DNA of 64,000 nucleotides from Eledone cirrhosa (Eukaryota). How positions within the stretch are numbered: position 1 is the stretch's first letter; the number at the start of each line of letters is the position of its first letter. The stretch spans positions 351,602,001 through 351,666,000 of the forward strand of contig OZ024740.1 of NCBI GenBank assembly GCA_964016885.1, written 5' to 3'. Below are positions 7,718 to 62,055 of the stretch, piece after piece. Below the pieces are notes generated by a model. The model saw nothing but the letters and a program-made list of their open reading frames with translations, did no database searches and was not told the DNA's origin. Both the position numbers and the translations under genes were made by a program.

Positions 7718-7997
7718 AGCAAGATGTATGGTAGGTCGTATGTGAATCGCGATGGTCACGTCTGACCTACCAAATATGTGACAGTAGCTAGTTAAGCTCT
7801 ATGCGTATACGCAGAGCAGAAATATTAGTGAAAAAGAACAAAGGAACTATTATGACATTATAATGAGTTTATTGCCGACAGCCGTTTCGTCCGACCATAT
7901 GGTGGGACTTTTCAAAAGTCCCACCATATGGTCGGACGAAACGGCTGTCGGCAATAAACTCGTTATAATGTCATAATAGTTCCTTTGTTCTTTTTCA

Positions 7998-8004
<7 letters not shown>
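7718..8004 (-). mobile_element. Fold-back Penelope-pLTR-like element: 183-bp near-perfect palindrome (7822-8004) centred on a degenerate hammerhead core, flanked by TA repeats
   Basis: 91-bp arms, 1-nt loop at 7913, one mismatch. - strand reads TTGAAAA-GTCC-loop-GGAC-GAAA-CGGCTG-TC, then AATAAA. Confidence 0.7.
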
Positions 8005-8091
<87 letters not shown>

Positions 8092-8099
8092 GAGAGAGA
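8001..8099. repeat. Compound (TA)n(GA)n microsatellite
   Basis: Direct inspection. Confidence 0.98.
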
Positions 8100-8367
8100 A
8101 ATTATATAAATAGGACACACGTGCATGCCCCACGTGTAACTAACTACTTCTAACTATCCTCCTGCATCACCTTCATAGGCTGCCAATGTTGTATTATAAC
8201 TTTAATTTTGTTGTAATTTTCTTTTAATATGACTTTAATCTTTAAATGTAATCTGCCATGCTTAAATATTATAATGGATGTCAACCCACTGTGCATCAAT
8301 ATATACATATGTTTCTATGTCTTGTGTTGAAAAGGAGGTCAAGTATGTAAACAATCATTGAAAAATT

Positions 8368-8412
8368 GCTCCGAAGACACCAAACCTCGGTTTGGAAGAA
8401 ACAATTGTAAGC
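8368..8412 (+). ncRNA. Minimal type I hammerhead-like motif (U4->C variant) in a pLTR-like element (~8120-8633)
   Basis: GCT-CCGAAGA-CA-CCAAAC-CTCG-GTTTGG-AA-GAAA-CAATTG-TA-AGC: stem I GCT/AGC, 6-bp stem II, palindromic stem III; AATAAA at 8414-8419. Confidence 0.65.
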
Positions 8413-8631
8413 GAATAAATGATTTGAACAGAACTTTGATTCTTGTAATTTCTATATAACTGCTCTGTAGAACAACTGATGTTATTACATTGAGCTATTT
8501 TTCTTACTGGTAATAAGGTAGTAATAAATTACTGTCTTTCACTGTTTAGGGTTTAAAATATATATAACTATAAAAGGTTTTACTGTATACATATCCATAA
8601 ATAGTATCCTTAATAGTATCCTTAATAGTTG

Positions 8632-8632
<1 letters not shown>

Positions 8633-8684
<52 letters not shown>
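8633..8684. repeat. (TA)n microsatellite shared by two convergent hammerhead elements
   Basis: Direct inspection. Confidence 0.98.
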
Positions 8685-8687
<3 letters not shown>

Positions 8688-8774
8688 GAAAAATTGAACA
8701 GGGACAGAACAGAGAGGCAGTACGACAAATGTTTATTAAATTCACGCTCAGGAGAGTGGGGGGTAGGTGGAGGA

Positions 8775-8804
8775 CGACGTTTCGGGCATAAGCCCTTCTT
8801 CAGG
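8775..8804 (-). ncRNA. Minimal Penelope-type hammerhead motif
   Basis: - strand CCTGAAGA-A-GGGC-TTAT-GCCC-GAAA-CG-TC; palindromic ACGT stem III; AATAAA downstream, then TA repeat. Confidence 0.7.
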
Positions 8805-9644
8805 TGAGAGTTCAAAAGGTGTGTAGGGGAGTGGTGGAGAGACATATAGCGAAAGGAAACGGTGCGAATGAAAAATTAACAAATAAAGACAAAAATATAA
8901 TAAATAATAAATAAAAATAAAGCATGATCAAAATACAAGGAATGCATAGAAATATCATAAAGGTAATGACACAGGCGATCGTGAACAAAAAATCATGGAA
9001 TACAATTGTAGGAACACAGGCAAAGAATCATAGAGAGAGAGATAGATAGATAGATTGTGTGTGTGTGTGTGTGTGTTTAAATGTGGAATTTTTCCCAATG
9101 CTTTAAAAAAAAAAATGAAAAAAGAATTGAAAGGGAATTATTTAATGTAATTGCATTTACACATACTTTTAAGCCATGGAAATCCTCTAATTGTTATTAG
9201 TGATGTCTAGAGTCTGCCATTGTCATCACAATCAACATCAGTGTATGAAATAGATAAAAATTGTATAAACTGTCCTATGTTAGTGAGAAAGACAAGGGGA
9301 GAAGAGGTGAAGACACAAAGCTGATGACAAATAACTGCAACAAATGGTAAATTTAGCAGAGTCTACATTGTTGTGAGCATTTAAGTGAGGGGTGGAGGTG
9401 GGGGTCTCCAGTTTAAGAGCACCTTCCCTTCCACCTGACTTGAGGTCCTGAAAAAGGTTATGAGTGCTGTCTTTCTCTCCCTGACTTATCTAGCTGAATC
9501 CACTTTGATGAATACTAGTTAGCTTTTAAAAGTATCTCCGAAAAATAAAAGGGAAATTAAAAAGAAATGGAAAAGTAGTAATAAAATTATGTCTGGTGAT
9601 CATATATATTGATCATTCATATTTTCACAAAATAATTTATTGAT

Positions 9645-9780
9645 TTTTTTCTTTTCTTTTCTTTTCTTTTCTTTTCTTTTCCTTTCTTTTCCTTTCTTTT
9701 CTTTTCTTTTCTTTTCCTTTCTTTTCCTTTCTTTTCTTTTCTTTTCTTTTCCTTTCTTTTCTTTTCTTTTCTTTTCTTTT
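9645..9780. repeat. (CTTTT)n pentanucleotide microsatellite
   Basis: Direct inspection. Confidence 0.97.
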
Positions 9781-12488: not shown

Positions 12489-13301
12489 CGAGGGGGGATC
12501 AAAAAGTTCGCGGAATTTTATCGTAGTAAGAAAAAAATAGGTTAAAACAATATTAAACATGTCAGAACATTGTCACTGGGTGTTTACCTTGCTATTAGTC
12601 ACTTGCAGTCAGTTATGCGTGGTTGATGAAGAGCATTTCCTGACCAGAATCATCACCGGAGATGAAACCTGGATCTACCAGTATGATCCTGAATCCAAAC
12701 AGCAGTCAAAACAGTGGCTTCCACGTGGATCATCGGGGCCAATCAAAAGTCGAATCAAAAAGTGATGGCCACCATTTTCTGGGATTCAGATGGGGTGATA
12801 CTAATAGATTATCTTGAAGGTCAAAGAACTGTGACAGGAGCTTACTATGCAAATGTTTTAAGGAAACTGAAAGAGGCATTAGTCAAGAAACGAAAAAGGA
12901 AACTTCATGGTGGGATCTTGTTTGACCATGACAATGCACCAGCGCATTCTGCGCGGGTTGCAAAAGAAGTTCTTCGAGAATTTCGATGGGAAGTGCTTCC
13001 TCACCCGCCTTATAGTCCAGATTTAGCCCCATCAGACTTTTTCCTCTTTCCAAAACTCAAAGAAATGTGAAAAGGAACCCGTTTTAGTGGTGTTGAAGAA
13101 GCTAAAAACACTGCCAACACATGGCTTCGAACAAGGCCTTCAACTTTCTTTAGAGACGGCTGACGAAGCTGGAAGCATCGCCTTGTGAAGTGTATTGACG
13201 TGGATGGCAACTATGTAGAAAAATAAATTGAAGGTAAATCATATTTTTTGAAAAATAGAATATTTTCTGAAAAATTCCGCGAACTTTTTGATCCCCCCTC
13301 G
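12489..13301 (+). mobile_element. Mariner DNA transposon, internally deleted (no HTH domain), frameshifted DDD transposase
   Basis: 31-bp perfect TIRs CGAGGGGGGATCAAAAAGTTCGCGGAATTTT, TA on both sides; ORF pieces ITGDETWIYQYDP, HDNAPAH, YSPDLAPSDFFLFP. Confidence 0.95.
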
Positions 13302-13480
13302 TACATAAGAAATAAACACGCATGAGATACATACACATTCACTAGACACTCTTGCACAATACTATAGATAGTATGTTGGTAATAAACACACACATAACAT
13401 GATATAGACACACAACATAATAGACGATATATAAAAAATAAACACACACATAATGCCATGGAAGGTATACAAGTAATAAT

Positions 13481-13669: not shown

Positions 13670-15127
13670 GTATACAAGTAATAATGGAAAACTCCAATGA
13701 ATTCTAATTCTGGCACTAAACTCATTTGTGAGTCGATTAGATTAACCCAAGTGCTTTACTGTACTTTATTTTATTGGCATACAAAAAGAAGCAAAGTTGA
13801 CCATGCCATGATTTTTTAAAAACTTTTAATGTCAGGTATTTTGTTTACACCTCTACCAAATCTGCTATCTATGGCTCTCTTCTAACATTTATATAAGAGG
13901 AATGGTTTAGTTGATTATATCAACTTCCCAGTACTTGAATTGGAGAAAAACACTTACTCCTCACACCTATGCAGGCTTAGCTGGCTTGCATATGATGTTG
14001 CATCTCATTGGAGGTTTCTTAGGTGTTTTAATGATATGGTTTTTCGTGATAGGAATGGGGTCCCTATGAAATGAAACATCTTGCTCAAGAACTTAATATG
14101 TCGCCTGATTCAGGAATCAAATCCATGACCATATGATCATGAGTCTGACACCCTAACTACTAGGCCACACACCATCACTTGACTTGTACTTTATTTTATC
14201 AACATCCCTAGGACGAAAGGCAAAGATGACCTTAGTAGTATTTCCTTCAAGGAACATAACTTAATAACAGGAACTTGATTTATATTATTTTAGTTAACTC
14301 AACAAGCATGGGAGACAACTCTAGACATATTTCAGTTTATCTAACCTCCTCAGTAAAGCCTATGCTTTATTATACTTCCCAAATTATTGAGAGAATGACT
14401 AAGCAGATATATTCAACTGTACAATTCTAGTGCTTTAATACTCTCTGCACTGAATAACTATGTTAACACTGACTTAATTGTTTTTTTTTTTTCATGTGGA
14501 TAGTATCTAAGAGCAATTTATTCTCTGAACTTTTCGATATCTAAAGTCTGGGTGACTAGAGTCATGATTATAACAAAGACAGAAAACCAAAACATTCTTG
14601 ACTGCTGAAATATTTCTTAAACATTTCAGTTTCATGAAAACTTCTCTCTTACATCAGCTTTAACTTCTGACAAATACATTTATAGCTTGCACTTAATTAC
14701 TCTCAGCTGTATATGTCATGAGACTTCAAATCTGTGGTTACATACATAATATACATACACACACACACACACATATATATATCATCGTTTAATATCAATT
14801 TTCCATCCTAGCATGGGTTAAAATATATAGTTATATATATATACACACATATGCATACATATATACCCACATATATGTCTATGTATACTTTTGCTTCTGC
14901 AGTACTTGTCAGTAGTCATGAGAGAACAAGATATATATATCAATTTATCAAAATGAGATTACAGCTATATATTTAAATATATCTATTCCATGCACTTAAG
15001 AGAATCTTGGAAATCTGACTTCACAACTTAATTTTTCACTTCACTTTATTTCACTTGTAATATTTCTAATGAAATATACTGCCTATGTGTTTCAGTTAAT
15101 TTTGAAAATAATAAAATAACTTCATTA

Positions 15128-17849: not shown

Positions 17850-20018
17850 CACTGGGCAACAAAAAAATTTTTTTTGTTTGGTCCCTGGAATATTTCAACG
17901 AATTCTTAAGTGATTTTGCCAGCTAAATTCAAAAATAACTTCAGTTTTTCTCTATCAGGTCTAGTTTTCTGACTAGACTTGATAGAGTAAGTATTTTATT
18001 CATACAAGAGGCATATAATATGAACCAATAAAGAGAGCGTAACACAAAACAAAAGAAAGTACAAATGAAAATTCAAAATTGAAAAGGCACATTGGCAAAG
18101 ATTTTTGGCAGAAAATTCAAGGAATAAATTTACGCTTCTTTGTGCACTGTGAATGTTGAACAACAGGAGTATCTTGTTTTAAGCACCAGCAATAGTCTGC
18201 CATTATCACAGCGTCCCAACGTCCTTGGTACTGAGTTTCCATCTCCTTGATGTCTTGATGGAATCATTTGCCTTGTTCATTGCTAACATCTCCGAGATTT
18301 TCAGGAAAACGATCAAGATGACTAAAAAGATAATGCATTTTGATGCTCATATTCGCGTCAATATCACGAAATGTTGATATCAAGTTGGTAACAAGGTCTT
18401 TATAGTTTTCACTTTTGTGTTTCCCAAGGAAATTTTGCACTACTTTGCAAAGGCTAGCCAAGCTGATGCTTCATTTCCGTTCATCGTTTTCATAAAATTT
18501 GTGTCCTTCAAGAGCTTATGCATCTGTGATCCATCGAAAATCCAAGTTTTTCAATCGTCAAGTCTGGAAATACACTGCAGATATACTTGAAACACTCCCC
18601 ATTTTTGTCAAGAGCTTTGACGAATCGCTTGATCCGAGTTTGATGTGCAAAGGGGGGGGGGGGGTGATCTTATCTCACTCAACTAAAGGTTCTTCCAATA
18701 TATTGGCAGCTCTACATGGAGCCATATTTGTTTGAGGCGGCCAGTCTTTCTTAACATAGGAGTTTACTCAGTTTCTACTGTCCCACATGCAAAGAAAGCA
18801 TGGGTATTTGGTATAACCAGATTGCTGTCCCATGAGAAAATTCACCATCTTTAGGTCAATGCAGATGACCCATTTATGATCATGATACAGTATCTTCTCT
18901 AAAACCAACTTAATTTCTTCATATTTTTCCTTCACAGTTGTTGAGTGGCTGAGTGGGACAGAGCCATACACATTTCCGTTGTGCAACAATACACATTTTA
19001 AAGTATGCTTAGAGCTGTCTATGAAAAGACGCCATTCTTCTGGTTTGTATTCCCCAATGCCAAGTTTATTAAGAAGTCCACTGACATCTCTGCAGTAAAC
19101 TAGCTCTTCCTCTTTTGTGAAGAAAGAAAGGAACTCTTCATGTTGACTCCGATAGAAGGTTATACGGACACCGTTCTCTAGAAGATACTTCTCATTCAGT
19201 CGGGAAGCCAACAGTTCTGCAGAATTTTTTGGGAGGTTCAAGTCACGAACTAGATCATTCAGCTCTACCTGGGAGAATAGCTGGGGTGAAGTTTCTACTG
19301 AAAAGTCTTGATCTCTAGTGTCATCTTCAGGTGATGAATCTTCTTGGTTGAGGGTAAAGTTATCTGAAGCAAGACATTGAAGACAGGAACAGGAAGCTCT
19401 TCACTGTGTGGAACCGGTCTAATAGCAGAGGCAAGATTAGGATAGACAAGCGTTTGTCAATTTTTTTTCTGATTAATACCCTTCAAATTTAGTTGTCCAC
19501 GTGATTATAGGGCTCCTGCCATACCATTGGTATAGCAAACCTTGTACTTTTCCTTGTCCCTTTAGTCCATTGTCGCAAATGTTCTGTACATTGTTTGCAG
19601 ACACTATGTGGTGCCCAATATTTATCTTGGTCTCTCAACTTGCCATATACGCTCTTTCAACAAAATCAGTGATGTTTTTTTTCAATTTTCACGTAATGTG
19701 TATTCTCTACAAACATAACAAAACACATTTGGAGAATTAACACAACACTTTCTTGAAGAGGACATCTTGTTCATTTTCTATTGCTTACTTCACCACAACA
19801 TCTAAAAAGTATGGAAAAAGAAAAAAACTTAGAATTAGAATAAGGTAACGAACACTGCGTACTGGACGTCCACACATACATAGTGACTATAGGGATGTTC
19901 AATAACTTAAAAACTAGATCTTATAGGTCAAAAAGAAGGTTATATTTGGATTCAGGAGACCGATTTTGTATAGGAATGATGTCTATTTCCTAAACACCAA
20001 AAACCTTGTAGATCAGTG
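17850..20018 (-). mobile_element. Chapaev3-type (CMC superfamily) DNA transposon, full length with decayed transposase (~18117-19774)
   Basis: CACTG...CAGTG termini with TAA on both sides. N-terminal Cys-rich CVNSPNVFCYVC..DQDKYWAPH..AIPMVWQEP; core WRLFIDSS..LKCVLLHNGN..DLKMVNFLMGQQSGYTKYPCFLCMWDSR; KMHYLFSHLDRFPENLGDVS. Family assigned from remembered motifs, not a database search. Confidence 0.8.
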
Positions 20019-20032
20019 TAATTATTATTAGT

Positions 20033-24400: not shown

Positions 24401-27400
24401 GGCATCATTCCAGCAGGTCAGTATCCCACATAAAAAGTTTCTTTTTTTCTGATTTTGGTCACTTAACTGCCCCTGGCCCTACAATACAAAACTGTCTATT
24501 TTAAAGTATTTATATTTATCTAAAAACTTTCCTTCAATTTTTACTAGGAATCTTTAAGTTATGTTCCTAACTCTAGATAAATAATGAGAAAGTTATTCAA
24601 ATGCTTTATTTTCAAAATTATATGAAAATCATAGGCAAATCCTTTCATTAGAAATATGGTTACAAAAGGGTTAATTTGTTGACACTATTGGCTACACATT
24701 ATTGTAGGTCTCTGGTAAATCTGACAGTCTTGTGATTGGTATTAGAAAGAAAGGATTAGAAAGGATTAGAAAAAACCCTTTCACTCTTGTTATACAAACT
24801 CTAATTACATTTTTTTACAAGTTAGTTTGAGGAATAGGCTCAGTGCTCATGATATTTTGTTGACCCTCTCAGGCTCTAATGGTAAGGCATTCCTCTGACA
24901 CATAACCACTTTTAACATTACATGATTCTACTCTATAGTACTCATGGGTCTTGATGGAGTTGTAGGGATGCCATCTTCTGGTAGAACCCATCTCTCTCCA
25001 GGCTGAAGCACAGCCAATTTCTTCCAGAGGAGAAAGAAAGTGATATAGAGGAAGGATCGACCCCAATAGTGGACTTGTTATTTATTTATCAACTGTAAAA
25101 GGATCAAAGTCAAAGTTGACTTTGGCAGGATTTGAACTCAGATCACAGTGAGCCAGAATAAATACCAAAACATTTAATCTGATGCCTTAACGATTCTGCC
25201 AATTCACTGCCTCAACTTCTTTGACTAACAACAACAACAACAACAACAAAATGTGATTTATGGAATAGTTATGAAACGAAACGAGGATGACAGCAACAAT
25301 CAGCAATAGCATCTTCAATGTTTCTCACCTTCATTCACATCAAGTCTAGTATGTAAACAGATGAAAAAAAACTAGTCAGCAGAATTCATCTTCCACCATG
25401 TTTTTTTCCTTTTTGCCACACCCACCCAGCTGTAGCATTTTCTAATTCTGTCCCTCCTTCCCCCTTTCTCTCTCTCTTTCTCTAGTACATGGTTTCATTC
25501 ATTCTGTCTAATTTATACAAACATTTTGTTCCACTTCTCTTCGTGTTTGCCATTCTCATTATTTTCCCTCTCTTTTAATAGCTCCATTTTAACTGTGTTC
25601 ACTAGTGCACTTGATTTCAACAAATATTTTGAAAGAAAATACAAAAATCTCTCTTCCTCCTTTTTCTTTCTCAATCTATCTATCTCTCTTTCTCTTTCAC
25701 TTAGTAGCATATTTTCTCCCCATTTTCAGCATTAAAAGAAAATATTTAATGTGTCAATATCATTTTTTTTTTTTTTATGTATTTTATAGTTTTAATATCT
25801 TTATTTAAAAAATGTATTTATATAGACAAAAAATACTATGTCATCATTTGCTTCTTTTTTTTCTTGAATTCTTTGAGTCATAATCTATACATACATAACA
25901 TCATCACTGTTGCAACCACCAATATTACTGTTATCATCTTCACCATCACCATTATCATCCTTGTCCATTTTTTTCATGCTTCTGAAGCACAGTGTCTTGC
26001 TACTTGTCACATTCCCTTATCTTCTTTTTCGTGAGACTCAGCTTCTTGAGATAAGCTTTCACCACTTCTTCCACAGGTTCCCTCCATTGGAAATAGCTTG
26101 GTACTTCACTTCTTCACTCAACTGTTATCCTCTGCATGTGTTACCTGTTTGTACCAATGTAGTCTGCATTCTTGTTTGCTACGTCTTATTCCTTTTGTGT
26201 CCAGTTTTGTATTATTTATTTATTTATTATTTATTTATTATTTTATCAACTATAATCACTCAGTATAGAGACAGAATGGGGTTGAGACGGCTTTTTAATT
26301 CTGCTGAGGACATAACTCCTCTGTTGGTGTTACCATAAAATGCACCCAATACACTCTTAAAGTGGTTGGTGTTAGAAAGGGCATCCACTCATAAAGTATA
26401 TAATATGTGAATATACAGAAAGATATAAGTAAATAAATTTCATATATAGTAAAGCAATATATAAGTTGGATAATTAATATGAAATTGGTTAGGATAGAAA
26501 AATGCTTTGGGTTCTATCTCGGTGTACAGGATTCTGGGCATGTGTCTTCTACCTTAGCATCATGTTAACCAAAGCCTTTTGAATGAAATAAGGTAGATGG
26601 AAGCTATCCCATAAAGTGTGTTTGTATATGTGTGAATATATATCATCATCATTGTCATCATCACCATTTAACATCTATTTTCCATGCTTGCTTAGGTTGC
26701 ACAAGCTGTCACGTTATGAGGTTAAACATATCAGGTGACCACGTCTTGCTCATATGCTCTGTTTTTGGCTTAGTTTCCTATGACTAGATGCCCTTCCTAA
26801 TGCTTGGGCTGGGAGCTTTTTTGTGGCACCAGCACTACTACACTACAGGATAGATTGCATCTTTTTTGTTGTGGTACCAGCACAACCACCTTACAGAGTT
26901 GACTGGGTGGCACCATTACCACCATTGCCATTTTACAGTGTGGAAACACACTCACGCATGCACACACTGGTATGGGTTGGATGGATTATCACAGTTCTAA
27001 TGGGTTTATGTGAACTCATCTTGCTTATACATTCCATATTTGGCATAGTTTCTATGGATGTATGCATTTCCTAACACCATATTTGTGTCTGTGTGTGTGT
27101 GTATTGTTGAGTGTTGGATGAACAAAATTGTTGTAGCAAACAAATATATCCTGTGGTCCTTCTGTCCCTTTACACTGGGCTAACTTTGTCATTCTTTGTA
27201 AGACATAAAACGAGAGACAAAACACTAGGGTTAATGTAATCAATTAAACCCAACTGATGGTGCTGTCTCACAATGTCCACAGTACTAAAACTAAAACAAT
27301 AAAAGATGATGTAAATTACAGGAAGATACCAGTTTGGAGAATGAGACGTTAAATAATCATCATCATCATGGTTTTTACGTCTGCTTTTCCATGCTTGCAT

Positions 27401-44819: not shown

Positions 44820-46423
44820 CTTACACAGATACACACAGACACATGCGCTAACACACACATACCATACACACACTCATACATATGCACATATGCACACATT
44901 CTAACACACACATACACACGCACATACACACTTAAACCTATATATATGTATATATGGAGGCACATGGCTTAGTGGTTAGAGCATTGGCCTTGCAATCGAA
45001 AGGTTGTGAGTTCAATTCTCAGACCGGGTGATGTGTTGTTTCCTTGAGCAAGACACTTTATTTCACATTGCTCCAGTTTACTCAGCTGTAGAAATGAGAT
45101 GATAGGGACTGAGGCCCCTATCATTCCACTGAAAAGTGGTCGTGGAGGTGCCACGGCAAAAAAGCACCCAGCACTCACTGTAAATGAGGTTGGTGTTAGG
45201 AAGGGCATCCAGCTGTAGAAATCAAGCCAGAATCGGTTCCCGTCCCACCCTTGCAAGCAGGGAAAAGCGGACGCAAAATGATGATGATGATGATATATAG
45301 AGAGACACACATAATATACATATATAATATATATATATTATATATATATATATATATATTATATATACACACACACACCCATATATAAAACACACACACA
45401 CGCACACGCATACACACACATAACACACACAGACACACACACGCATACACACACATATAACACACACACACATATATATATATATATTATATGCTCAGCC
45501 CCAGTGAGTTGGTTAAAACACCAAAAGCCAGTCTTAAAGTTGTCGTCTGTAAATTCAAAGAACTCGGCTGTGCCTGGTTAGATCTCCATGGTAACTACTC
45601 CAAGGTAGCGCGTGCCATGGCTGGGAACGCAGGTGTCACGTGCTGGCCTAGAACGCTGGTTGTTGGAATCAGTGGTCGATGACATAACATATATATTATA
45701 TGTGTGTGGAATAGTATAAATATTTCTTCGTATTTATTAACATATATATTATATATTATATATAGATACATTATATATATATTATTAATATATTACATAC
45801 GTACATTTATTTATATATATATATATATATTTATTAAAATAAAAGATTAAAGTTTAAGCAAAGAATCGCTGCTTTCACCCTTAACGGGATCTTCTGAAAC
45901 TAACCAATATATATATATATATATATATAATGTATAAAAATCAATACAATATAATTACCGCAATATATTGCCTCGTCTGACGAACGAATGAAGACGTTTC
46001 TTTCGTATTCGCCTCATTCGGGAAACCTCTGGTAATGAGGTAATTATATTGTATTGATTTTTATACATTAAATTTTGCTCTGATACTTACATAGAGCACT
46101 CTTCACTTCTATGACCTTTTCTGTTTTCAATGGAAATTTCAATACTTATATATATATATATATATATATATTCCTGGTGATATCTCAAGAATGAAAAAGT
46201 TCTAGTCTATATATATATTACACACACAGAAATGTATATATATTTCTGTGTGTATATATATATATATATTACACACAGAAATGAATATATATTTCTGTGT
46301 GTATATATATATATATATTTCTGTGTGTGTATATATATATATATATTACACACACAGAAATGTATATATATTTCTGTGTGTATATATATATATATATTAC
46401 ACACAGAAATGAATATATATTTC

Positions 46424-46454
<31 letters not shown>

Positions 46455-47753
46455 TTCTGTGTGTGTATATATATATATATATTACACACACAGAAATGTA
46501 TATATATTTCTTAGAACAAAATTATTATTAATGTTTTGCTGTTCATAACAATTGGAATTGAAAAATTACTTTTGAAATTATTAGTTATTTTACTAATGCT
46601 TAGATATGTAAAAATGAAGCAATGTTTCTAATAATTGTTTCTACTTTTGGCACAAGGCCAGCAATTAACCAGTACATTACTGGTACTTTATTTTATCGAC
46701 CCCGTGAGGATGAAAGGCAAAGTTAACCTCGGCGGTATTTGAACTCAGACCGTAAAGGGACGTAACTCCATGCTATGAAGCATGGTGTCCGACTCTCTAC
46801 AGATTCTGCCAATCCACCGCCCTAATGTCTGTACGTAATGAGGGAGTGAGAGGGGAGAGAAAGAAAGGCAGAGGTGAAGTGACGAAGTGACTCTCTCCTC
46901 CTCCACCTCCTCCATCTCCCCATTCGTCACAGCGATAGAGGGGAGGAACGTTAGTGTGTTACAAAGAGAAAGAGTGAGAGTGAGAGAAACAGACAGACTA
47001 AAAGAGAGGGATAAGCTGGAGAGAGAGAGAGATAGCAACCACGCGCGCACGTGTTTCCACTGTCGGACAGACAGACAGAGAAATTGCTGGTTATATATTA
47101 TAAGGAGATATGGCAGCAATTAGTGATGGTGCCACAATAAAATGCACCCAGTACACTCTGTAGTGGTTGACAATCAAATGTAGTTAGGACCCTTTATTTA
47201 CTCTTGGTGAGGACATGACAACCTCTTGAGTGTTGGTGTCATGATAAAATACACCCAGTGCACTCTGTAAAGTGGTGTGGTTGGTGTTGGGCAAGGCATC
47301 CAGTCATAGAAACCATGCCAAAAATTAGAACGTTCAACATTAAAGACAAGAGCAACTTACATCTGTATCAAAAATATCAATTAGCAGATTTCATTGGTTA
47401 TTTCCCTTGCTTTTTAAACCATTACTATTGACTACTATTAGTGTGAATAATCTCACTCAAGTGACGTTTTTCAACTCACTATATTACATGTGAAATTGTA
47501 CTTTATGCTGAAATAATATAACTTACTAGCAGATGAGCTAGCATGGAAATCTCAACATGGTCACTTGACTTGCTAGATATAACAGCCAAATCTCCCACAA
47601 ATCACACCGTACTGTCTTAAACATGGAGTAATGTAGTCATAGACACTCCTGAAAAGACGATTTGGAATGTCTTTGACCTTGGGATTGTTTAATGAAGCCT
47701 GTCTTGGGGCTAAACAACAACCTCAACTAACAGAAATAATCGACATTGCCCTG

Positions 47754-47791: not shown

Positions 47792-50700
47792 CCGTTTTAC
47801 GTCCGTTCTTCCATGCTAACATGGGTTAGACGGGTTGTCCTGTTGTAGGCAGTGTCTGGTCGGCTGACCATGCTCATACAGGAACTGATTTGGCTTGATT
47901 TCTACAGCTGGATGCCCTTCCTAACACCAACCTCATTTACAGTGAGTGCTGGGTGCTTTTTCGTGGCGCCTACACGTCCACTTTACAGTGTGGGCTGGGT
48001 GCTTTTTTGCCGTGGCACCTCCATGACCACCTTGCGGTGGGGGCATATTGTCTATATGCTTCAGCTTGTACCCATGGGAGGTCGGGTACTCTGTATTACT
48101 GCGTGACGCCAGAGGTCACGGTCGTGTGTCATTGCCTTTGAGAGGTGTAATTGGGTAAGGTCGGCTTTTATCACCTCATCCCAGGTCATCTTGGGTCTCC
48201 CCACTCCGCGGTTTCCATCGACTTCTAGTGCTCTGCACCTTTTTATGCAGCTGTCAGCCTTCATACGCATAACATGTCCATACCAGCGCAACCGCCTCTC
48301 CTGCACACAGCATTTGATTCCTCTTATGCTCAGTTTCTCTCTCAATTCATTTATGCTTTGTCGTTCACGTATATTACTGTTACACATCCATCGGAGCATG
48401 CAGGCTTCGTTTCTCTCTAATCTACATAAGTCTTCCACCTTCAGCGCCCAGGTCTCACTACCATGCAACATCGCTGTTCGGATACACGCATAATACAGTC
48501 TGCCTTTCATTCTGAGGGAGAAGCCTTTTGCAGCTAGCAGTGGTAGTAGTTCCCTAAACTTCTTCCATCCCGTTCTTACCCTAGTTATTGTACTTTCTGA
48601 ACACCTACCTCCGCTGCTAATTCGGTCACCTAGGTAGCAGAAGTTGTCTACTGTTTCTACAGAGCCCTCCCAGAGATTGGTTGTACTTGTTTCCTGTGGC
48701 TGTTTGCTGCTTGCTGTCCCAGCACAGCTGCTGCATGTGAAGCCTGCATTCTTAATTAAGCTTCCTGAGATCCTGCTACATCTCTTGTGTACCCATTGTT
48801 TGCATTTGGGGCAGAGAATGGAGTTCCTACCTACACCTTTCCTACATACTGAGCAAGGCCATTTCCCTGAGGGGATCTGGGTTCTGTTTTCTCGTCTACT
48901 TACAAGGACCTTAGTATTTGTCATGTTGACTTTGAGACCCTTTCTTTCTAGTCCCTGCTTCCAAGTTTGGAATTTCTTCTCTAGTTCTACCATAGATTCA
49001 GCTATAAGTGCGAGGTCATCAGCATACAGGAGTTCCCATGGGCATCCGGTCTTAAACTCCTCCGTTATTGCCTGCAGGACTATGATGAACAGGAGGGGGC
49101 TAAGAACAGAGCCTTGGTGGACCCAACCTGTACGCTAAATTCCTTGCTATACTCATTGCTAATCCTAACTTTGCTGACTGCTCCCCTATACATGGCTTGT
49201 ACCACTTTCACAAGCCATTCATCTACTCCTAGTTTTCTAAGAGCCCACCAGATTACAGCACGTGGAACTCTGTCAAAGGCTTTCTCAAGGTCGACAAATG
49301 CCAAGTAGAGTGGCTTACTTTTAGCTAGGTACTTTTCCTGTAACTGCCTCACAAGGAAGAGGGCATCAGTGGTGCCTCTTCCTGGTACAAACCCAAATTG
49401 CATCTCATCTAGTTTCACCCGGTCTCTAATCAACTGTGCTATAACTCTTTCTGTTACTTTCATGACCTGGTCCATCAGCTTTATACCTCTATAGTTTCCT
49501 CTATCTAGTGCATCACCTTTACCTTTGTAGCAGTTGACAATGATGCTACTGCACCAATCTTTTGGTATGACACCTTCTAGTATTACCTGGTTAACAATAC
49601 GTGTGGTTATAGTGTGACCTACAGACCCAGATGCCTTCAGCATCTCGGCAGCTATACCCGATAGACCAGTTGCGTTCCCCATCTTCATATCTTTGATTGC
49701 CTTACTTACTACGTTGCTGCTGACTTGTACTGCTGGCTCCTCTATAGAGTCTACTTGGGGTAGGGTCTCTTCTTCCCATGCATTCTCCTCATTTAGTAAT
49801 CTATCATAATGACTCTTCCATGCATCTTTCTTCTCAGCACTTGTGAGGGCAAGCTCACCTTTATCATTCCGGATACACTTCTCTCCAATGACATCACAAC
49901 TCTCTCTGACATAAATAGCTTAAATAAATTACTCTATTGTTGAAAAAATATTTTGTTCTTCCACATTAGAAATCAGTCCTTTCTTGAACCCCGAGTTTCA
50001 TAAGAATTACAGGCTGTGAATTCACAGAATCACTAGAGCTTAGACTATAATGCCTTGCAGTATTTGTTTTAGTTCTCTTCAAATCTCACCAATGTGAACT
50101 TAATTAGGTACACAATGCTGATATTTCAGTAAAAAGTAGAACATTCAGTAATTTTTCATGAAGTCTTGTTAGATGTATAGAATTTATGATTATTTCATCA
50201 TCATCATCATCATTTTATGTCCGCTTTTCCCTGCTTGCAAGGTCCTATTCAGCACAGCTTCTCTTCAAATAAAAAAAAAAACAGCTTCAAATTAATTTGG
50301 GTCTATGCAAATAAGGCCTACTCTAGACAAAATTCACTTCCCTCATAACACACAAACATATCTCAATTTATGAATTTTATTACTGTTTTTGCTAACACAT
50401 TCCATCATTAGTTTCCACAGATTCCAGTTTTTCTATTTTTTTTTAATGTATATTTTTATTTACTGAAATTTAAACTGAGTTCCTGTTTCATTTGTTTTCT
50501 AGTTGCCAAGTGTGTGCTGCAGCTCTTGAAAGGCTTGGTCAGTATCCTTCAGAAACTTCTTCTCTTGGTATGTTGGCAACAGAATCATTAACCCTTTCAT
50601 TACCATATTTCTAAAAACACAGCCAATGATTTTCAATTAATTGTTAAAATAGAACGTAGATTTTATATGTGGCTGGTGCTCAGGTGCAATAAATAGTAAG

Positions 50701-53375
50701 TGCCCACAGGATACTAGCTCCTTCTGTTGCCCAGATGGCTCTATAGAAATAGTGGACACCTTTCGTTACCTGGGTGACAAAATCAATTATGGTGGAGGGT
50801 GCTCTGAAAGTATAGTAGCCAGAGTCAGAACGGGATGGAAAAAGTTCAGAGAGCTTATACCACTATTGGCCACTAAAGGTTTCTCTTATAAATGAAAAGC
50901 AGACTGTTTGATGCCTGCATACGAACAGCTATGTTACATGGCAGTGAGACATGATCATTGTGTGCAGAGGATCTGCACAGACTGGAGAGGATCAAAGCAT
51001 GCATGCTCTGTTGGATGTGTAATAGTAATATATGTGAACAGCAAAGCATAAATGAACTAAGTGAGAAATTAGGTATAAGAGGGATCAGATGCTGAAAGAC
51101 AGATCATGAAAGACGACAGCTGTATAAAAAAATGCAGGGTGATCAAAATTGATGGTAGTTACGGAGCAGGCAGACCCAGAAAAACCTGGGACGATTTGAT
51201 AAATTCCGACCTTACACAATTACACCTCTCTAAGACAATGTCACTGGACTGAGATCTTTGGCGTTACACAGTAATACAGAAGACCCACCTTGCCTAAGTA
51301 CAAAGCGAAACCTACAGTCAGTAGGCTCCTCTTAATCAAATATACACCCCCATCCCACTACTCCAACTCCCTCCCATCTCCACCCCTATCAACACCACCA
51401 CTTTCTCTGTAAAGTTATGTTGGTACCATAATATCCAGCCCTAAATAAATGAGGTCGTGTAGGTGTCACGACAAAAAAACACACAGTCCACGCTGTAATG
51501 TGGCCGTGTAGGTAACACGGTAAAAACCTCCCAGTCCACACTGTAAACGTGGTTGGTGTTAGGAAGGGCATTCAGCCATGGAAAACCTGCCAAACGGTCC
51601 TATACGAGCGAGATGACCAATCTTGCCTCAAGTGGGACAATTCCTGTCTAAATCCATGCTAGCGTGAAAGATAGACGTTAAACGATGATGATGATGAATA
51701 AAAAAATTGGGAGGAATTTAGTAATATAACTAATTTTGTTAAGTTTGAGTTAGAAACATTACTTGAAAAGGTTCTTACATAAAGATATAATGGAAGTTTT
51801 AGATTTAAATTGAATACTTTAAAACAAACACTTTCTTTCCATCCAAGTATTCCTCTACTGTGGCTTCTTGCAATATCTTCAGAAAGTTCCTTTACTATAG
51901 GCTTGGGTGTAGCTCAAGCCTTGTGTGGAAATTGCTTGGAAGCCCTGTTAGATGGACCGTAACTCTAATTCAAAGGTCCAGCCATGACACATTGTGTCAC
52001 ACTGATTTGGCCTCAGAATTATGTTATGGATGCACATGTATGTGGAATACTCAACCACTTACATGTTAATTCATAAATTGAATGGTCTGTTGATTAAAAA
52101 ACTGAATGCTCATTGTTGAAACCAACATTTGTAGCATCAAAATATGAAGTCTGGAAAAACGTTTGGAAATTTCCTTGCTAGAAAAACAAAATCAAAGCTA
52201 TATAAATTGATTTCATTTATTTACAGTAGCATATGGTTTGAGATTTATAGGAGGGAAAATGAGATTCTTTAATGTGCATCTATTTCTGGAGTGTATTAGA
52301 AACATTGTGACGTGCCCAGTTCAATGTAATATGTCATTTGTTGTGTTTGTAATGTGTTGTCATTTGGAGAAGTCAAACTGGCAGAGCACATCCTGTTACA
52401 TACTGAAGGTGTCATACACAACAGTTCAATATATTTGATTAGATTTAGGTGCAGGCATTGCTGCGTGGTTTAGCAGTTCATCCCAGAATCATGTGGTTTT
52501 GGAATAGATCCCATAGCATGGTACCTTGGGAAAGTTTCTTCTGTATAGCCTTGGACTGACCAGTATCTTGTGAGTGAATCTGGTAGACAGAAACTGTAAG
52601 GAAGTCTATTGTATATGAGTATGTGTGCACACAAATGACAATTGCTACGAATATCTTCATATTGACACCATTTAAAAAGCAAGTGGTGACATTTATGTCT
52701 CACATAGATAATAGATTCCGCTCCTTAGTAGTTCAATAAACATCAGCAGTATTTACTATGCTTACAATAAGATATAGGTTAGTGTTAGAAAGGGTGTCTG
52801 GCTGTAAAAAATTTGCCTTAAAAAATCTTGTCCAACTCTTGCCAGCGTGAAAAAGTGGACATAAAAATGATGATAATGTAGGAAAATACACTAAAAGCGC
52901 TTGTCTGTTTAACAAACAGGAATTGAACTCAGCACTGGAAGCTAACTAGGTACTTGCCTAAATTTACAGTGCTACAACTACAGGCAGCTCTCTTATGTCT
53001 ACATACAGCTAGTTTGTGTGTATGTATGTGATGTGCTTGCAAAATGAGTTTACAATCTTGGTTTAACATTCCCTTTACAATTGATATGATATTTGAATAC
53101 TGGTTAAGATAAATTTGTGTATTTTAACTTAGAGAATTAATGTTCTAAATTATGATTTTGTTTAAGGTAAAGAAAAGTGGCAGTCAATCCGTGGTGATTT
53201 TATTGGTGTTAATGCAGTTACAATGAGTTGCCGGTGTGCCATGAGCCCAGAAGGTGTGTCTCCTGCTTGTCATTTGGGAGATGGATGTACCGACTTAATC
53301 CTAGTGAAACGTTGTTCTCGGATAAATTACTTGCATCATTTATACCGATGCAGAGACAGACAATCAGACCAGGTT

Positions 53376-53417
<42 letters not shown>

Positions 53418-57315: not shown

Positions 57316-58103
57316 AATGTTTTATTTTTATTTAGCATTCTAAGCTTGGATAGATATCTTCCTAGCTTAGTTCTGCTATGGTGATATAAAAACTGAGAAA
57401 ATGGTGAACAGTTTATAAAAGGGACACGTTCATTGAAGAGGAGTAAAAAAAGAGAGAATGGAGAAGAGGAGAGGAAAACTAAACAAAATCATATTACTGT
57501 GATATTTCTTGGTGCCCTGCACATCTCCTCTATAGTTTTGTCCCTCATGCTGCTGCTCATCCATTCACTTCTGATGAACAGTTTCAATCTGTTTGGTTAC
57601 TTTAGGTTTAAACTTGTTCATAACATAATAGGCCACCAATGAACAGTGTTATTGCTGTTCTTTTAATGTATATTGCATATCTGAACAACATATAGAATTT
57701 ATTTGCTCCCCCTTCTTTTTTATGTTATGCATATATATTTTAGCCATATCAAACATAGAATATATGATTTACAAATAAAATAAGTTGGGTACATTTTTCT
57801 TAAAAATTGAATTATATCTCAAGGTTTTATTACTGCATAATCTTTGTGTGAACAAATCAAGTGATAATGAGCAAATTATAATTTGTCTACAACTTCTATT
57901 AAATCTTCATATATCTCCAGATAATGTATCAAAATAATTGCCAAATAATCATTTTTTTTCTCTTATACTCTCTTCTTAATTACATTAATGAATGTAATTA
58001 AAGGAGAGAATAGAAGTTGACAGTTCAATTTCACCTAAAATCGCCCCTTTTTATGTTATGATGTTACAAGCACAAATTATACATTTTATTATGGGGTTTA
58101 TTT

Positions 58104-58287
58104 GGCGGTGGATTGGCAGTATCGGTAGAGGGTCGGACGTCATGCTTTCCAGCATAGTTACGTCCCTTTACGATCTGAGTTCAAATCCCGCCGAGGTTGA
58201 CTTTGCCTTTCATCCTTACGGGGTCGATAAAATAAAGTACCAGTAATGCACTGGGTAATTGCTGGCCTTGTGCCTAAAGTAGAAACA
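58104..58287 (+). mobile_element. SINE family A, full-length young copy with 16-bp TSD
   Basis: ATTATGGGGTTTATTT at 58088-58103 and 58288-58303; Pol III A and B boxes present. Confidence 0.9.
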
Positions 58288-58770
58288 ATTATGGGGTTTA
58301 TTTATTTTTAATTCCCAAAGTCATTTAGATGGTGAGGTCATACATATTACAAAGCTTGTGATAGGGTTTGAATTTCTGGAACAAATTGTTTAGTATTTCA
58401 ACCATTTAAAGCACCATTCAGTTTAAGTTTTATAGAAGGTGATTTACTTTCATACAATTAATGATTGAAACTTTTCACACTTTCGAATATGAGCATGCTG
58501 TTTTTTTATTTTTTATTTTTTGTTTTCTTTCTTTCTGTTCTCTCTTACTGGTTCCAGCTAGCTGGCTGTTGCCATACTGGGGCACGTCCTTCATCATCTA
58601 ATCAATTATTTGAACTTCGGTAAAAGGTGATTCTATACCTTATCTAGTTCTCAAGAATTATATGGATGTGTTGTATGTATATCCAGACATAAAACCATTC
58701 AAATATTAACTGAATGAACACTCAATACATATAGAGGGTGGAGTTTATTTTTCAAAGAAAAAGGTTGTCA

Positions 58771-58810
58771 GTAACTCTGAAGTTTCGGCTGTAGAAAGCC
58801 TTGTCAGGCT
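58771..58810 (-). ncRNA. Degenerate hammerhead-like motif in a pLTR-like remnant
   Basis: - strand CTGACAA-GGCT-TTCTAC-AGCC-GAAA-CT-TCAG-AG-TT (G8 lost); AATAAA and a CTCTAT..ATTGAG hairpin downstream. Confidence 0.45.
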
Positions 58811-61780
58811 ATATATTACATACACAAGGTATTTATAATTCCCAAGACCCTAATTTATACCTACTAGTTGAAAAAGAGAGAAATTATGGCTTGAAGTGGG
58901 CCAGACAAGAGTAGACATGGTTTATTGGCATACAAAGATAATTATTTAAACATTGACCAAACTAAAAGGTTTAACACTTACTTACACATGTCAGCGTTGG
59001 GTTATTGTTCTTGAACAACATACATTTGATTCAGTTCAGTCGATGTTTTAGCTCCAAGCTGACCTCGATTGATCAGACCTATAATCAAAGGCATTCCAGG
59101 GCATGATTTGAGAGAGATTTAGTTACTATTTCTCATAATTCAAGTGACCACACAGTATGCTCTTCATGGTAGAATGAATATGTATAGATTGGGAAAGGCA
59201 ACTATCATTAGAAATCAGATCCACGGTATGTATATATATATATGAATTTGTAAAGTTACCAAACATATGGGTGAAAACAACAAAATCTGATAGGTATGTG
59301 AACACGGCTACACTTAATGTACAAGCCCTATATCAATGTTGGACTGGTACACACCCAACCTTAATGAACAGAAAATTTGTAGTAGTATTTTCAATATAGA
59401 AATATAGCAAATTTTCACTTTCTTGTGAGTAATGTATTAAAATATTTTGTCACATGGTATATAGTTTCTTTCTCTTTCTAAATAGTGAAAAATGTTATAA
59501 AGTTTTACAGAATTATTTTTCTTTTACAACTCAGATTTTACAGCCATTAATAAGGTGAGGGATATATTTGGCAATTTCATAAGTAGATGTAGAAATGCAG
59601 TAAGTCTATTGAGAAAATTCCTAGTTTGTATTCCACTGTTATATCATTGAAATCTATTTACATTTAATATCAACAATCAGTTATAAAATAGCACTCACAT
59701 ATCACATCCACCTCTGAATTTGACAGGGAGGATATTATTATAAACAAATATTCCCAATCCACTAATTATTTATTTTACTCCACAAAGGCAATAGCAGATA
59801 TGTTCCCCTAAACAATTTATATGCTGCTGTTTGTCTTTCATAGACTATGTAATAATGATTTGTTTCATTTTTATTTCCAAACTTTTTTCTTTGTTATGAC
59901 TTGTTTTTCATCTGTGACTATTAAACAATGACATACACTATTTTAATGGTAATAGCAACAAGGATTTTAATAAAACAATATATCAGTTCTTATTACTTGT
60001 TTTTCTTTGACTATGTCTGCAGTTCATTTATATTGCTTCTTATTGTCATCAATTTTGTATTGTTTTACCAGGAACAGAAAAGATATATAAGAACATTTTA
60101 TTAGGTAAAGACTTGTAGTTTTGAATACAAAGGCCATTTTCCCTGCTAAAACAGAAGTTGAACTAGCAAGCCCAAGACATGCTGCTTCCAAACTCACCAT
60201 GGACTTTATTTTTAGGCAAAGTTTTATGATGTTTCTATTCTAAACCTGGGTATGCACAGTATACTGCAGGGCTTTGAATCTCATTGTAGATAAGTGTGTT
60301 GTTATAGCAGATACACCTACATAGGTTTAACCAGCCTCTTATGAGGTTGCATCTCATGGGTTTCTTAGGTTTTAACAAGAGGAGTACTCCAGTCATATAA
60401 TGACTGGAGTACCCCTCAAGTATCTATTCTAGCTCCCAGAACACAAACCTGTCTGATGCCTTAATAATTTTACCAATCCTTAACCCAGAAAATATGGAAG
60501 GCAAAGTGAAAATATTTTCAGTGAGGATTATAAGCTGTAGAGCAGGCCTACTTGGCTCGACTTCCCGTACTGACCTAGCCTTGACTAGGTGACTGGCAGT
60601 CATCCTTGAATACATTCAGATCCCACTCAGACATCCTAAAGCACATCCAGGTCACACATACATCTACATCATGTTCAGGCATCCCTCACTGTATTCAGGT
60701 CATGTACAGACAGCCTAGACTACATCAATCTCACCTGCTTCAGAAAGCCTATGAAAGCCATGGTAACTGCTACCTTCCTCCAGACCTAACAAAAGCATTT
60801 TGACCATTGGACTCTCTCTGGTCTTATAGTGACCATGATGACCAATTGAGTAAATAGTCCAACTAAATCATTGTATATTTTTGAATTTTAATTTCCCACC
60901 TCTCAAATTCAAAGAAATATTTCAATCTTTATACATATAAAATGTAGATGAAAAATACCAGAAGAATGGAACCATCAAACTGTTGCAGGATTTTATTTTT
61001 TTAATATTTATTTTGTGAGCAATGTTGCATCAAATATTTAATGTATTCAGATTTGAAGAAAGGTGGAGCACATGGCATGAAAGTTGCCTTTAGAAAACAA
61101 AATAAAAATTTTGATTTTGTAATGATCTCCAGCATAAATAAAAAAAAAAATACAATGAAACAACTTTGGTCGAAAAACAGTTTTGGAAACTTTTTTTTTT
61201 TGTTTATACTGGATATGTTTGTATGTTTTAAATTCATTCGTGGTAAAGGTAGATAGACCCAAATGTCATGAGGACAGCTGAAAAGCAAACCTGGCAGCAA
61301 GAATGGAATAGTTTGTCACAGAAGAAACATAATATCGTACTGGAGAAATTGATGACTGTAAGAATACAAGCTTTTGGTTTAATTATAACAAATAGTTGTG
61401 ATGCTTTTCTTTTTTTGTCCCCTTTGTTTTACAAAACTTTTTTTTTCTTAATTACTTACTGACAATCTGAAGGCCTTTGTTGCAAAGAAAAAATATCACA
61501 CACACAGGTAACTAAACATTCACAGCAATATACATTGTTAATTTTCCAAATATTACAATTTATGTTGATGAAACATCATTGAAAGACTGGCCATATCAAT
61601 AGGAGCTGGATCTTAAGAGTTCAATTCCCTAACCGTTTATTTTTCTTCTGCTACTGAATAATTATTTCATAGAATTTCTTGTCATTTAAAAATTAGTTTA
61701 ATGGAAGCAGAAGGAAAGTGAGGAATAACCAACCTCACAAAAAAGCTGTGTAAGATGTTTATATATATATATATATATAC

Positions 61781-62055
61781 ATAATAATTAGTATAGACAA
61801 GGAGTCAAATTTTCTGTTAGCTAACAGAAGTCTGATGAGCTTTTAATTCCAGAGTTGGGCCCAAACGATAGAGATCGAACCTTGAACTGATCAATCGTGA
61901 AATTTGCATCACACCTGAATAAACTTAATGAAAATTTGACACCTTGTCCATACTTATTATACTCTTAGTAGAATCCTAAAGAACATACTGGAGACTACAC
62001 ATCTAGTGCTCATTTTGGCGTAACAACAGTAACTTGACATTACAATCCCTAAACT
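61781..62055 (+). mobile_element. Fold-back pLTR-like element with hammerhead-like core, between TA repeats
   Basis: 30-bp inverted arms 61784-61813 and 61931-61960 (27/30); CTGATGA at 61832-61838, GAAA at 61899-61902, AATAAA at 61918-61923. Confidence 0.6.

Follow-up and report, generated by a model that had tools for sequence, protein, structure and literature searches.

The eight hammerhead-bearing units scattered over a 64,000-nucleotide stretch of the Eledone cirrhosa genome (contig OZ024740.1; hereafter the window) are, in our reading, probably 5'-truncated 3' ends of Penelope-like elements (PLEs) with a shared, often doubled hairpin, which would bind the reverse transcriptase (RT)-endonuclease and set two starts of reverse transcription. 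We put it at slightly better than even that this twin hairpin, across animal phyla, serves as the binding site for an RT-endonuclease that is telomerase-related and dimeric, and that it sets both priming sites of each insertion.

The window units as traced or probable ends of Penelope-like elements

A sequence-only reading had taken the units for a population of tiny, non-autonomous ribozyme mini-elements. All eight do lie where it had placed them and all are multi-copy (155-3,685 candidates per unit at first look, of which 40 were scored); the word "tiny" fails, with U2 spanning 8102-8633, U3 8686-9032 and U4 40461-41395. The mini-element population found no support either: copies have fixed 3' ends and variable 5' ends that extend into RT/GIY-YIG ORFs, the very pattern which that reading had named as speaking against itself. 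Its link to Penelope was correct, and tblastn with two PLE proteins agreed that the window has no PLE RT. Six units are traced by sequence similarity to protein-coding PLE relatives, whose RT and GIY-YIG ORFs lie elsewhere in the genome; U7 and U8 are probably PLE tail ends. Judged by these matches, U1, U2, U3, U5 and U6 are 5'-truncated pseudo-LTR (pLTR) ends, and ORF motifs mark U1, U2, U5 and U6 as Hydra-type and U3 as Neptune-like. As such, the stubs are ordinary.

In U1, the direct arm (7718..7915, minus strand) is the long-ended stub of a 3' pLTR from a Hydra-type PLE, matching at 98.6% the pLTRs on either side of an 877-aa RT-endonuclease frame in locus L172, and its short-ended inverted arm (7911..8004, plus) stops about 4 nt before the first hairpin (hairpin 1). 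U2 (plus) is a 5'-truncated, long-ended Hydra-type stub that matches both pLTRs of the full-length L173. U3 (minus) consists of a Neptune-like pLTR end (8686-8944) preceded by a 92-nt element-leader piece; it has no bulged hairpin and matches the pLTRs of L174 at 99.6%. In U6, a short-ended inverted arm (45929..45965, minus), which stops about 6-8 nt before hairpin 1, adjoins a long-ended Hydra-type stub (direct arm, 45964..46146, plus) with 99.5% to the 3' end of the RT- and endonuclease-bearing L181.

U5 (45830..45903, minus) is a short-ended stub with 96-97% to the pLTR ends of the ORF-bearing L369 and L377, and the flanks shared among its copies make it a passenger within a larger TA-rich repeat. 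U4 (plus), from the same Hydra-type family, is a non-coding chimera of about 940 bp with a Helitron-like CTAG end at 40461 and a Hydra 3'UTR/pLTR piece from about 41065. Its carrier may be Helitron-like: 25 loci have the CTAG on one side (a one-base variant in 2), accompanied by an inverted repeat rich in GC, while the other end is variable and a 5' TC was not seen; Helitrons are recognized by a 3' CTRR with a nearby hairpin and a 5' TC (PMC4344730).

U7 (58660..58810, minus) is an old stub with 70-86% to other copies, and U8 (61781..62055, plus) an old head-to-head insertion with an arm at 61784-61837. Neither was joined to a same-strand ORF among the loci fetched. Inverted ORFs near the U8 loci L103 and L109 were not attributable to U8; the one in L109/L187 follows a U6-like pLTR. 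Decayed hairpins in U7 (58719-58744, minus) and U8 (61961-62008, plus) suggest that both are Hydra-type, and their layout agrees. Four fold-back arms had been proposed, of which we recovered those of U1 (91 nt, 99%), U8 (54 nt, 76%) and U6 (about 36 nt); the fourth was not found, and the pairing considered in U4 turned out to be hammerhead helix I.

Protein-coding relatives

In the Hydra-type loci, an RT followed by a C-terminal GIY-YIG domain is encoded on the element strand, in one 877-aa frame in L172, a near-intact young copy, and in pieces in L173, L181, L369 and L377. Pfam matches were weak: L173 has a GIY-YIG match at E=0.029, and L172 gave none. All five loci have DKT replacing DKG; RWR instead of RWK is present in L172, L173 and L369, a CxCx5C linker in L172, L173, L181 and L377, and CPH (CxH) in L172. 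Reading by eye revealed no cysteine pair within the GIY-YIG core of these ORFs. Among 120 homologues, 119 have DK[T/S] and 112 have RW[K/R]. With both end classes pooled, a microsatellite lies directly 3' of the end in 32/32 (U1), 32/34 (U2) and 33/33 (U6) cases, and directly after 67/70 of the short U4/5 ends. On their motifs, the U1, U2, U4/5 and U6 families are assigned to Hydra-clade PLEs. The U3 relative L174 has DKG, a CCHH-type endonuclease and CxxC; this copy is frameshifted, and its first linker cysteine was not seen. No relative was found in viral contigs.

Hammerheads are variable and widespread

All eight units have a type I hammerhead-like layout. The CUGAnGA core ascribed to them is exact only in U3 (8776-8803, minus), U6 (45977-46034, plus; complete) and U8 (61832-61910, plus; decayed, with a long helix II). 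It is altered in the other five: UUGAAAA in U1 (7877-7915, minus; UUGAAAA..GAAAC..GUC), CCGAAGA in U2 (8371-8409, plus), CAGAAGA in the decayed U4 (41333-41373, plus) and the hammerhead-like U5 (45856-45896, minus), and CUGACAA in the decayed U7 (58773-58807, minus). In window U1, helix I is without its 5' strand, which was lost at the inversion junction; all three helices are present in copies of the U2 family. At the family level, the hammerhead is canonical for U6, corresponds in U1 to the U3-A8 variant described in PMC4209133, and has core base U4 replaced in the U2 and U4/5 families. AATAAA follows the core in U1, U2, U3, U7 and U8, as had been noticed.

A strict CUGAnGA-stem-GAAA scan recovered 0/8 units, and Rfam gave no hammerhead match at E<=5 and no other fitting family in the window, nor either of these in seven Hydra-type loci; gCoV-5UTR and miRNA matches were discarded as following palindromes and microsatellites. 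Our three-helix type I descriptor recovers four units (U1, U3, U5, U6) and yields 9 window matches at a score of at least 7.5, compared to 0-5 (mean 1.0) in 12 shuffles. The proposed high local density is not unusual, as 600 kb of sampled genome gave 86 matches, against 5 and 7 in shuffles. By this descriptor, the genome would hold about 4x10^5 hammerheads (2.7-5.3x10^5), a total not directly comparable with the about 9,000 of Xenopus tropicalis (PMC4209133) because the descriptors differ. With the minimal metazoan pLTR hammerheads (Cervera & de la Pena 2014, PMC4209133), those found here share the unpaired base after A9, the palindromic helix III, the U3-A8 variant and mostly solitary truncated copies.

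A bulged hairpin precedes the ORF of most Hydra-type elements

The hairpin noticed in U1 (7796..7817, minus; 4-bp lower stem, 2-nt bulge, upper stem), U2 (8462..8495, plus) and U6 (46077..46097, plus) holds up. The U7 and U8 families have it too, and so does the U4/U5 family, in its tail. It is a bulged stem, GCUC-Y…R-UH-GAGC, of 20-35 nt, with a gap of 7 to over 50 nt between its two arms.

For an independent view, we used Hydra-type elements from other sources, chosen by protein alone. Of 92 loci, 23 were dropped because the match was not near the N-terminus start or little upstream DNA was available, and 2 more had <60 nt upstream. Among the remaining 67, the strict bulged hairpin lay <=200 nt from the ORF in 41, compared to 3/67 on the reverse strand and 23/611 windows of ORF interior. 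Copies were counted in the 55 loci with at least 130 nt upstream: 40 have a hairpin before the ORF, 27 of them two, and 15 have none. The complement is no valid control here, because the reverse complement of the anchor pair is the pair itself. Shuffles and ORF windows served as controls for this count instead, with two copies in 0/1,100 and 4/501, respectively. After clustering at 80% identity, 24/44 clusters have two copies.

The upper stem covaries among 73 unique hairpins. Its first pair is C-G in 50, U-A in 20 and G-U in 1, and its second is U-U in 16/73. With the 2-nt bulge, 97/68/70% of the hairpins pair, whereas no other register exceeds 51%, and 51 cells changed on both sides compared to 17 in shuffles. 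An anchor-based count was the main test, and many cells were set aside in the alignment-based one because MAFFT misplaced gaps in the short hairpins. Two of five covariation measures are not beyond shuffles (48/500, 396/500), and kinship inflates the other three. Pairing of GCUC with GAGC is no test, as the lower stem was the search anchor. Folding z-scores of ten single hairpins reach only -0.7 to -2.8, and a comparison of G-U with A-C counts does not clearly favour either strand. A search with hairpin model R1 scored the U6 copy at 33.7 bits, but this copy belongs to the training set; the model was weak on U1 (E 1.5) and U2 (E 0.33).

By eye, the same hairpin is recognizable in the Hydra consensus sequences from coral and sea cucumber (PMC8557442 supplement); it was not seen at the Hydra-1_Obim ends and is loose in Hydra-1_Crog. 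The Neptune-like U3 family transposes without it. A reading as a SECIS element, judged by the SECIS consensus, was dropped on sequence grounds. We found no description of the hairpin in Rfam or in the literature within our search, which did not extend to Repbase, subscription journals and some supplements.

Two alternative ends track two hairpins

In a full Hydra-type unit, the hammerhead and an AT-rich spacer are followed by end 1 with hairpin 1, then by end 2 with hairpin 2, and last by the start codon. The 3' end of each family thus comes in two alternative forms, usually 2-7 nt 5' of one or the other hairpin, and both classes adjoin (TA)n. Relative to hairpins 1/2, the modal last shared base is -4/-3 in U1, -3/-5 in U2 and -6/-2 in U6; in U4/5 it is -2 to hairpin 1. 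These offsets hold although the hairpin spacing varies (106, 163 and 76 nt; 39-83 nt in other hosts), and TA micro-homology leaves the ends uncertain by a few bases. The distance from hairpin 2 to the ORF match is 32-72 nt. Within this genome, reading by eye identified hairpin 2 in only three families, from 2-3 read-through copies each; in U6 it has a long apex, and model R1 took another register. Of 59 head-to-head pairs, 50 were classifiable and 43 of these combine a long with a short end. In the independent set, 16 element ends do not coincide with a contig end; 9 of them precede a hairpin by 0-6 nt, and 7 are elsewhere. Loci of the tandem array on contig C8 and duplicate window loci are excluded from the end counts.

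These positions suggest that the hairpin likely places the two internal RT starts that make the PLE "tail". The sequence-only reading had proposed hammerhead, AATAAA and hairpin together as the cis-signal; the hairpin stands, and the other two probably do not belong to it, since ends track the hairpin and not the hammerhead. A transcript begun in the upstream pLTR would carry both hairpins, each bound by one of two protein copies, whose endonucleases would nick a (TA)n tract on both strands. From either nick, cDNA synthesis would be primed a few bases 5' of a hairpin, with probable help from TA micro-homology; initiation without target homology in another PLE (PMC11167929) speaks against such help. 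Both cDNAs would usually abort early and join head to head, which would yield a long arm whose tail includes hairpin 1 and a short, inverted one that ends ahead of it, while the hairpin under the bound protein would stay uncopied. For insertion, the hammerhead is probably a passenger.

Alternative explanations

The motif could instead act in DNA, as an endonuclease site on a cDNA or tandem intermediate with the ends as cuts a few bases 5' of it, which we regard as possible but improbable. GCTC/GAGC is an inverted repeat in a TA-like cut context, PMC8557442 credits the tail to endonuclease-mediated resolution, and PMC11167929 cites a Penelope endonuclease that requires the tail for cleavage. 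However, the variable arm distance, the one-sided 2-nt bulge and the covarying upper pairs suit a folded single strand and not a duplex (folded single-stranded DNA could also fit), and in vitro the RT of a Poseidon PLE starts at the ends of the tail (PMC11167929).

It is unlikely that the hairpins direct RNA processing into two template 3' ends, or that hairpin 2 controls translation while the ends have some other cause. The ends immediately 5' of the stems and the closeness of hairpin 2 to the ORF match would fit, but hairpin 1, far from the start codon, marks its end as sharply, and internal initiation on unprocessed RNA has been shown for another PLE (PMC11167929).

Least probable of all are retrozyme-like mini-elements copied whole by a trans-acting RT: derivatives do exist at the margins, namely the U4 chimera and the U5 passenger, which multiply within non-coding repeats, and a 416-bp hammerhead-bearing array of the U3 pLTR on C8, but 5' ends differ from copy to copy and extend into ORFs, window U3 lacks the junction of the array and was rejected as its derivative, and a stub has no hairpin beyond its own end, so that under our preferred model of hairpin-set RT starts it could not regenerate that end. 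For U1, U2, U3, U5 and U6, this explanation is largely refuted.

Comparison with known elements

The Hydra clade (Craig et al. 2021, PMC8557442) shares the single ORF of RT and C-terminal GIY-YIG, RW[K/R], DKT, CxCx5C, the 3'-near type I hammerhead, (TA)n targets, the inverted 5'-truncated copy and the one-sided tail. The L172 frame has 877 aa versus roughly 700 aa in Hydra-clade relatives. Tails are 30-40 bp in that clade (PMC8557442) and 76-163 bp here, where they open with the conserved hairpin, a second copy follows the long end, and several families have altered cores (U4C, U4A, U3-A8). The word "hairpin" is absent from the text of PMC8557442, and 0/6 unit motifs were found in the supplement consulted.

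The Anolis element PAc, a Poseidon PLE (Frangieh et al. 2024, PMC11167929), is alike in its two internal RT starts bounding the tail, its AT-rich target, its upstream hammerhead, dispensable in vitro, and a predicted dimer. Its starts lie inside the ORF in an AC-rich stem-loop, whereas both ends here are upstream of the ORF; binding was mapped only to the first 172 nt, and here a conserved hairpin lies beside each end. In the parts of PMC11167929 consulted, a cross-family conserved motif is not reported for PAc. Non-LTR retrozymes (bioRxiv 10.64898/2026.07.22.740005), tandem, pLTR-derived and with one type I hammerhead per unit, are matched by the C8 array only; the window units are dispersed single or head-to-head truncated insertions instead of tandem monomers.

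Implications

The questions at stake are how PLE RTs choose their RNA and why a one-sided tail goes with an inverted arm. As the motif covaries, is doubled and keeps a distance of 2-7 nt to both ends across families whose flanks are unrelated, its proposed role is directly testable, and near-intact young copies such as L172 make the system workable. The hairpin is also a practical marker of Hydra-type elements. In telomerase RNA, template-flanking elements are RNA structures that fix internal template use by TERT. The hairpin may be likened to these by analogy only, as it lies 3' of the template start and there is no repeat addition. PLE RTs are sister to telomerase RT (PMC8557442), so an RNA positioning element in PLEs bears on the origin of template-defining RNAs. 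If our reading is true, the twin hairpin would explain both the PLE tail and the head-to-head signature, and would represent a portable signal that tells a TERT-sister enzyme where an internal template starts.

Most hammerhead-bearing units are ends of Penelope-like elements

The eight hammerhead-like units (U1 to U8 in coordinate order) are all present in the window and repeated across the 3.0-Gb genome assembly searched. Their copies have common 3' ends adjoining (TA)n and variable 5' ends, and walking upstream from them led to ORFs of Penelope-like elements (PLEs). In the U1 family locus L172, two pseudo-LTRs (pLTRs) at a distance of 5.4 kb flank an 877-aa frame, and a partial copy in inverted orientation precedes them; ORF loci were also obtained for the U2 (L173), U4/U5 (L369, L375, L377) and U6 (L181) families. 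Together, the ORFs of these four families encode the motifs DKT, RWR and CxCx5C. PMC8557442 gives DKT, RW[K/R] and CxCx5C as characteristic of the Hydra clade; this clade inserts at (TA)n, and an octopus element is listed among its members. The parent element of U3 (L174; DKG, CCHH-type) is, judged by these motifs, Neptune-like. U7 and U8, about 70-85% identical to other copies, are old, and none of the fetched loci linked either of them to an ORF. Several U6 copies (L071-L095) have their 5' truncation or inversion at one TATAT that lies shortly before hammerhead helix I.

The sequence-only reading had taken the units for non-autonomous ribozyme mini-elements, which fails for most of them because their copies trace to PLE ORFs and only some are non-autonomous offshoots. 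The window units are ordinary elements; PMC4209133 and PMC8557442 already describe pLTR stubs with hammerheads, as well as inverted arms, tails and (TA)n targeting.

Hammerhead cores and their density

The CUGAnGA core ascribed to the units is exact in U3, U6 and U8 only. U1 carries the U3-A8 hammerhead variant, described in PMC4209133, and U2, U4/U5 and U7 differ by single changes, which are family-wide in U2 and U4/U5. Every aligned copy of these two abundant families has another base at hammerhead position U4 (CCGAAGA, CAGAAGA), which suggests that cleavage is dispensable for their spread. Five units were confirmed to have the AATAAA and three to have the hairpin; also confirmed were three of four proposed fold-back arms.

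A strict CUGAnGA-stem-GAAA scan of the window found none of the eight units, and an Rfam search of it listed no hammerhead. Using a descriptor that demands helices I, II and III (type I), we obtained nine window hits, namely U1, U3, U5, U6 and five other sites, vs 0-5 in 12 shuffles. Some of the five, at 84-132 (+), 14324-14353 (-), 24599-24651 (-), 36929-37018 (-) and 51821-51882 (-), may be chance; the second scores high, yet the sampled DNA contains no further copy of it. On 60 evenly picked 10-kb stretches (L197-L256) the descriptor gave 86 hits, vs 5 and 7 in two shuffles. This corresponds to about one type I motif every 7.5 kb, with many families contributing, and by extrapolation to about 4x10^5 genome-wide (bootstrap 2.7-5.3x10^5). 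The window density is therefore average, and not unusually high as had been supposed.

Non-autonomous offshoots and neighbouring repeats

U4 lies inside a 940-bp non-coding chimera (40461-41395) with a Helitron-like fixed CTAG end. Among 25 copies found from this end (L389-L413), 8 reach the Hydra hammerhead end and about 11 change to a different sequence shortly ahead of it. The sequence on either side of U5 recurs at most of 20 loci, so that U5 rides in a larger TA-rich repeat (45750-46510; L257-L276) with AGAAAT/ATTTCT mini-palindrome units; U6 is inserted into a TA tract of this repeat.

The U3 pLTR makes up a tandem array of a 416-bp unit on another contig, C8 (~31,393,000-31,443,000; L176-L179). 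Four 10-kb stretches of the array contain 72 units with one hammerhead each, 98-99% alike. The array unit is a contiguous piece (pLTR plus leader) of the full Neptune-like element, which has a 938-aa open frame, and the array is a young retrozyme-like satellite. In the window, U3 opens with a leader piece joined 5' of the pLTR (8941-9032, -). This junction is permuted, unlike that of the array, and a template jump or circular intermediate is suggested as its origin.

Judging by motifs, we take 4488-7007 (-) to be a broken Ty3/gypsy-type pol, 41783-43365 (-) and 48061-49919 (-) two RTE-type LINE copies, 12693-13070 (+) a mariner-type transposase piece and 18768-19400 (-) another transposase-like frame.

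Twin hairpins follow the two 3' ends of Hydra-type elements

A bulged stem, GCUC-Y…R-UH-GAGC, occurs in ten hammerhead-bearing sequence clusters of the fetched loci, 26-86 nt downstream of the predicted cleavage site. Five clusters have G-C as its outer pair and four have A-U, while the remaining one has no pairing there. The motif is also visible by eye in the families of U7 and U8. In the sampled 600 kb it lies downstream of 8 of the 86 hammerhead hits, some of which may belong to neighbours, vs 0 and 0 in shuffles.

Each hairpin-bearing family has two 3' ends, a short end just before the hairpin (hairpin 1) and a long end 70-160 nt past the hairpin start, and full-length copies carry a second motif copy (hairpin 2) directly after the long end. 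Relative to hairpins 1 and 2, the last base shared by the copies lies most often at -4/-3 in U1, -3/-5 in U2 and -6/-2 in U6, and in U4/5 at -2 from hairpin 1; U8 was left out, its copies having diverged too far for an exact walk. We collected 59 head-to-head pairs of a direct and an inverted arm, a count in which overlapping loci may be doubled. Both ends were classifiable in 50 pairs, of which 43 combine a long with a short end, the form also taken by U1, U6 and U8 in the window. For the Neptune-like U3, one 3' end was observed, with no bulged hairpin at it.

The hairpin in other hosts

Searching with 38 aligned Hydra-type proteins, we recovered 79 loci from metagenome assemblies and 13 from genome_contigs; these loci are presumably animal DNA. 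Hydra-type loci were also present in records of bacterial MAGs and symbionts (L356-L367), most likely as host DNA contamination. We examined 69 of the protein-picked loci, 67 with enough upstream DNA; in 41 of these 67, a strict bulged hairpin lies no more than 200 nt from the ORF, vs 3 on the reverse strand and 23/611 ORF windows. With the GCTC and GAGC anchors only, two copies were counted at 27 of 55 loci, a single copy at 13 and no copy at 15, two copies being found in 0/1,100 shuffles. After 80% clustering, two copies remain in 24/44 clusters. The hairpins are spaced 39-83 nt apart, and 9 of 16 usable element ends sit 0-6 nt before one.

We compared 73 unique hairpins: 50 have C-G and 20 have U-A as their first upper pair, and the next two positions are paired in 68% and 70%, with all four Watson-Crick types. 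This register arises only with a 2-nt bulge, which is UU, UC or UA in 69/73. An alignment-based covariation test against shuffles agreed with the anchor-based pairing count on 3/5 measures. When consensus sequences from the PMC8557442 supplement are inspected by eye, the ends of coral Hydra-2_Amil and sea-cucumber Hydra-2_Ajap have one copy each, the start of Hydra-1_Ajap has two, a copepod Hydra consensus has a looser hairpin, and none was seen in the Hydra-1_Obim consensus.

A possible role in reverse transcription

According to PMC11167929, RT of a Poseidon PLE starts internally at two positions that delimit the tail and does not need the hammerhead in vitro; a dimer is predicted there. In Hydra elements, each RT start would be fixed by the hairpin on its immediate 3' side. 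A pair of nicks in (TA)n would prime two cDNAs, one per hairpin, and early abortion with head-to-head joining would leave a long arm with tail and a short inverted arm. Binding, dimer use and priming at the hairpins are reasonably probable on this comparative anatomy. The main alternative, that the motif is a DNA-level endonuclease signal, appears rather unlikely; that the hairpins direct RNA processing or translation control is more doubtful still.

No description of the twin hairpin was found in the open-access literature searched, or in Rfam searches of the window and of seven Hydra-type loci. As a start signal for reverse transcription or otherwise, the hairpin is a candidate for a new cis-acting RNA motif, and one worth a direct test.
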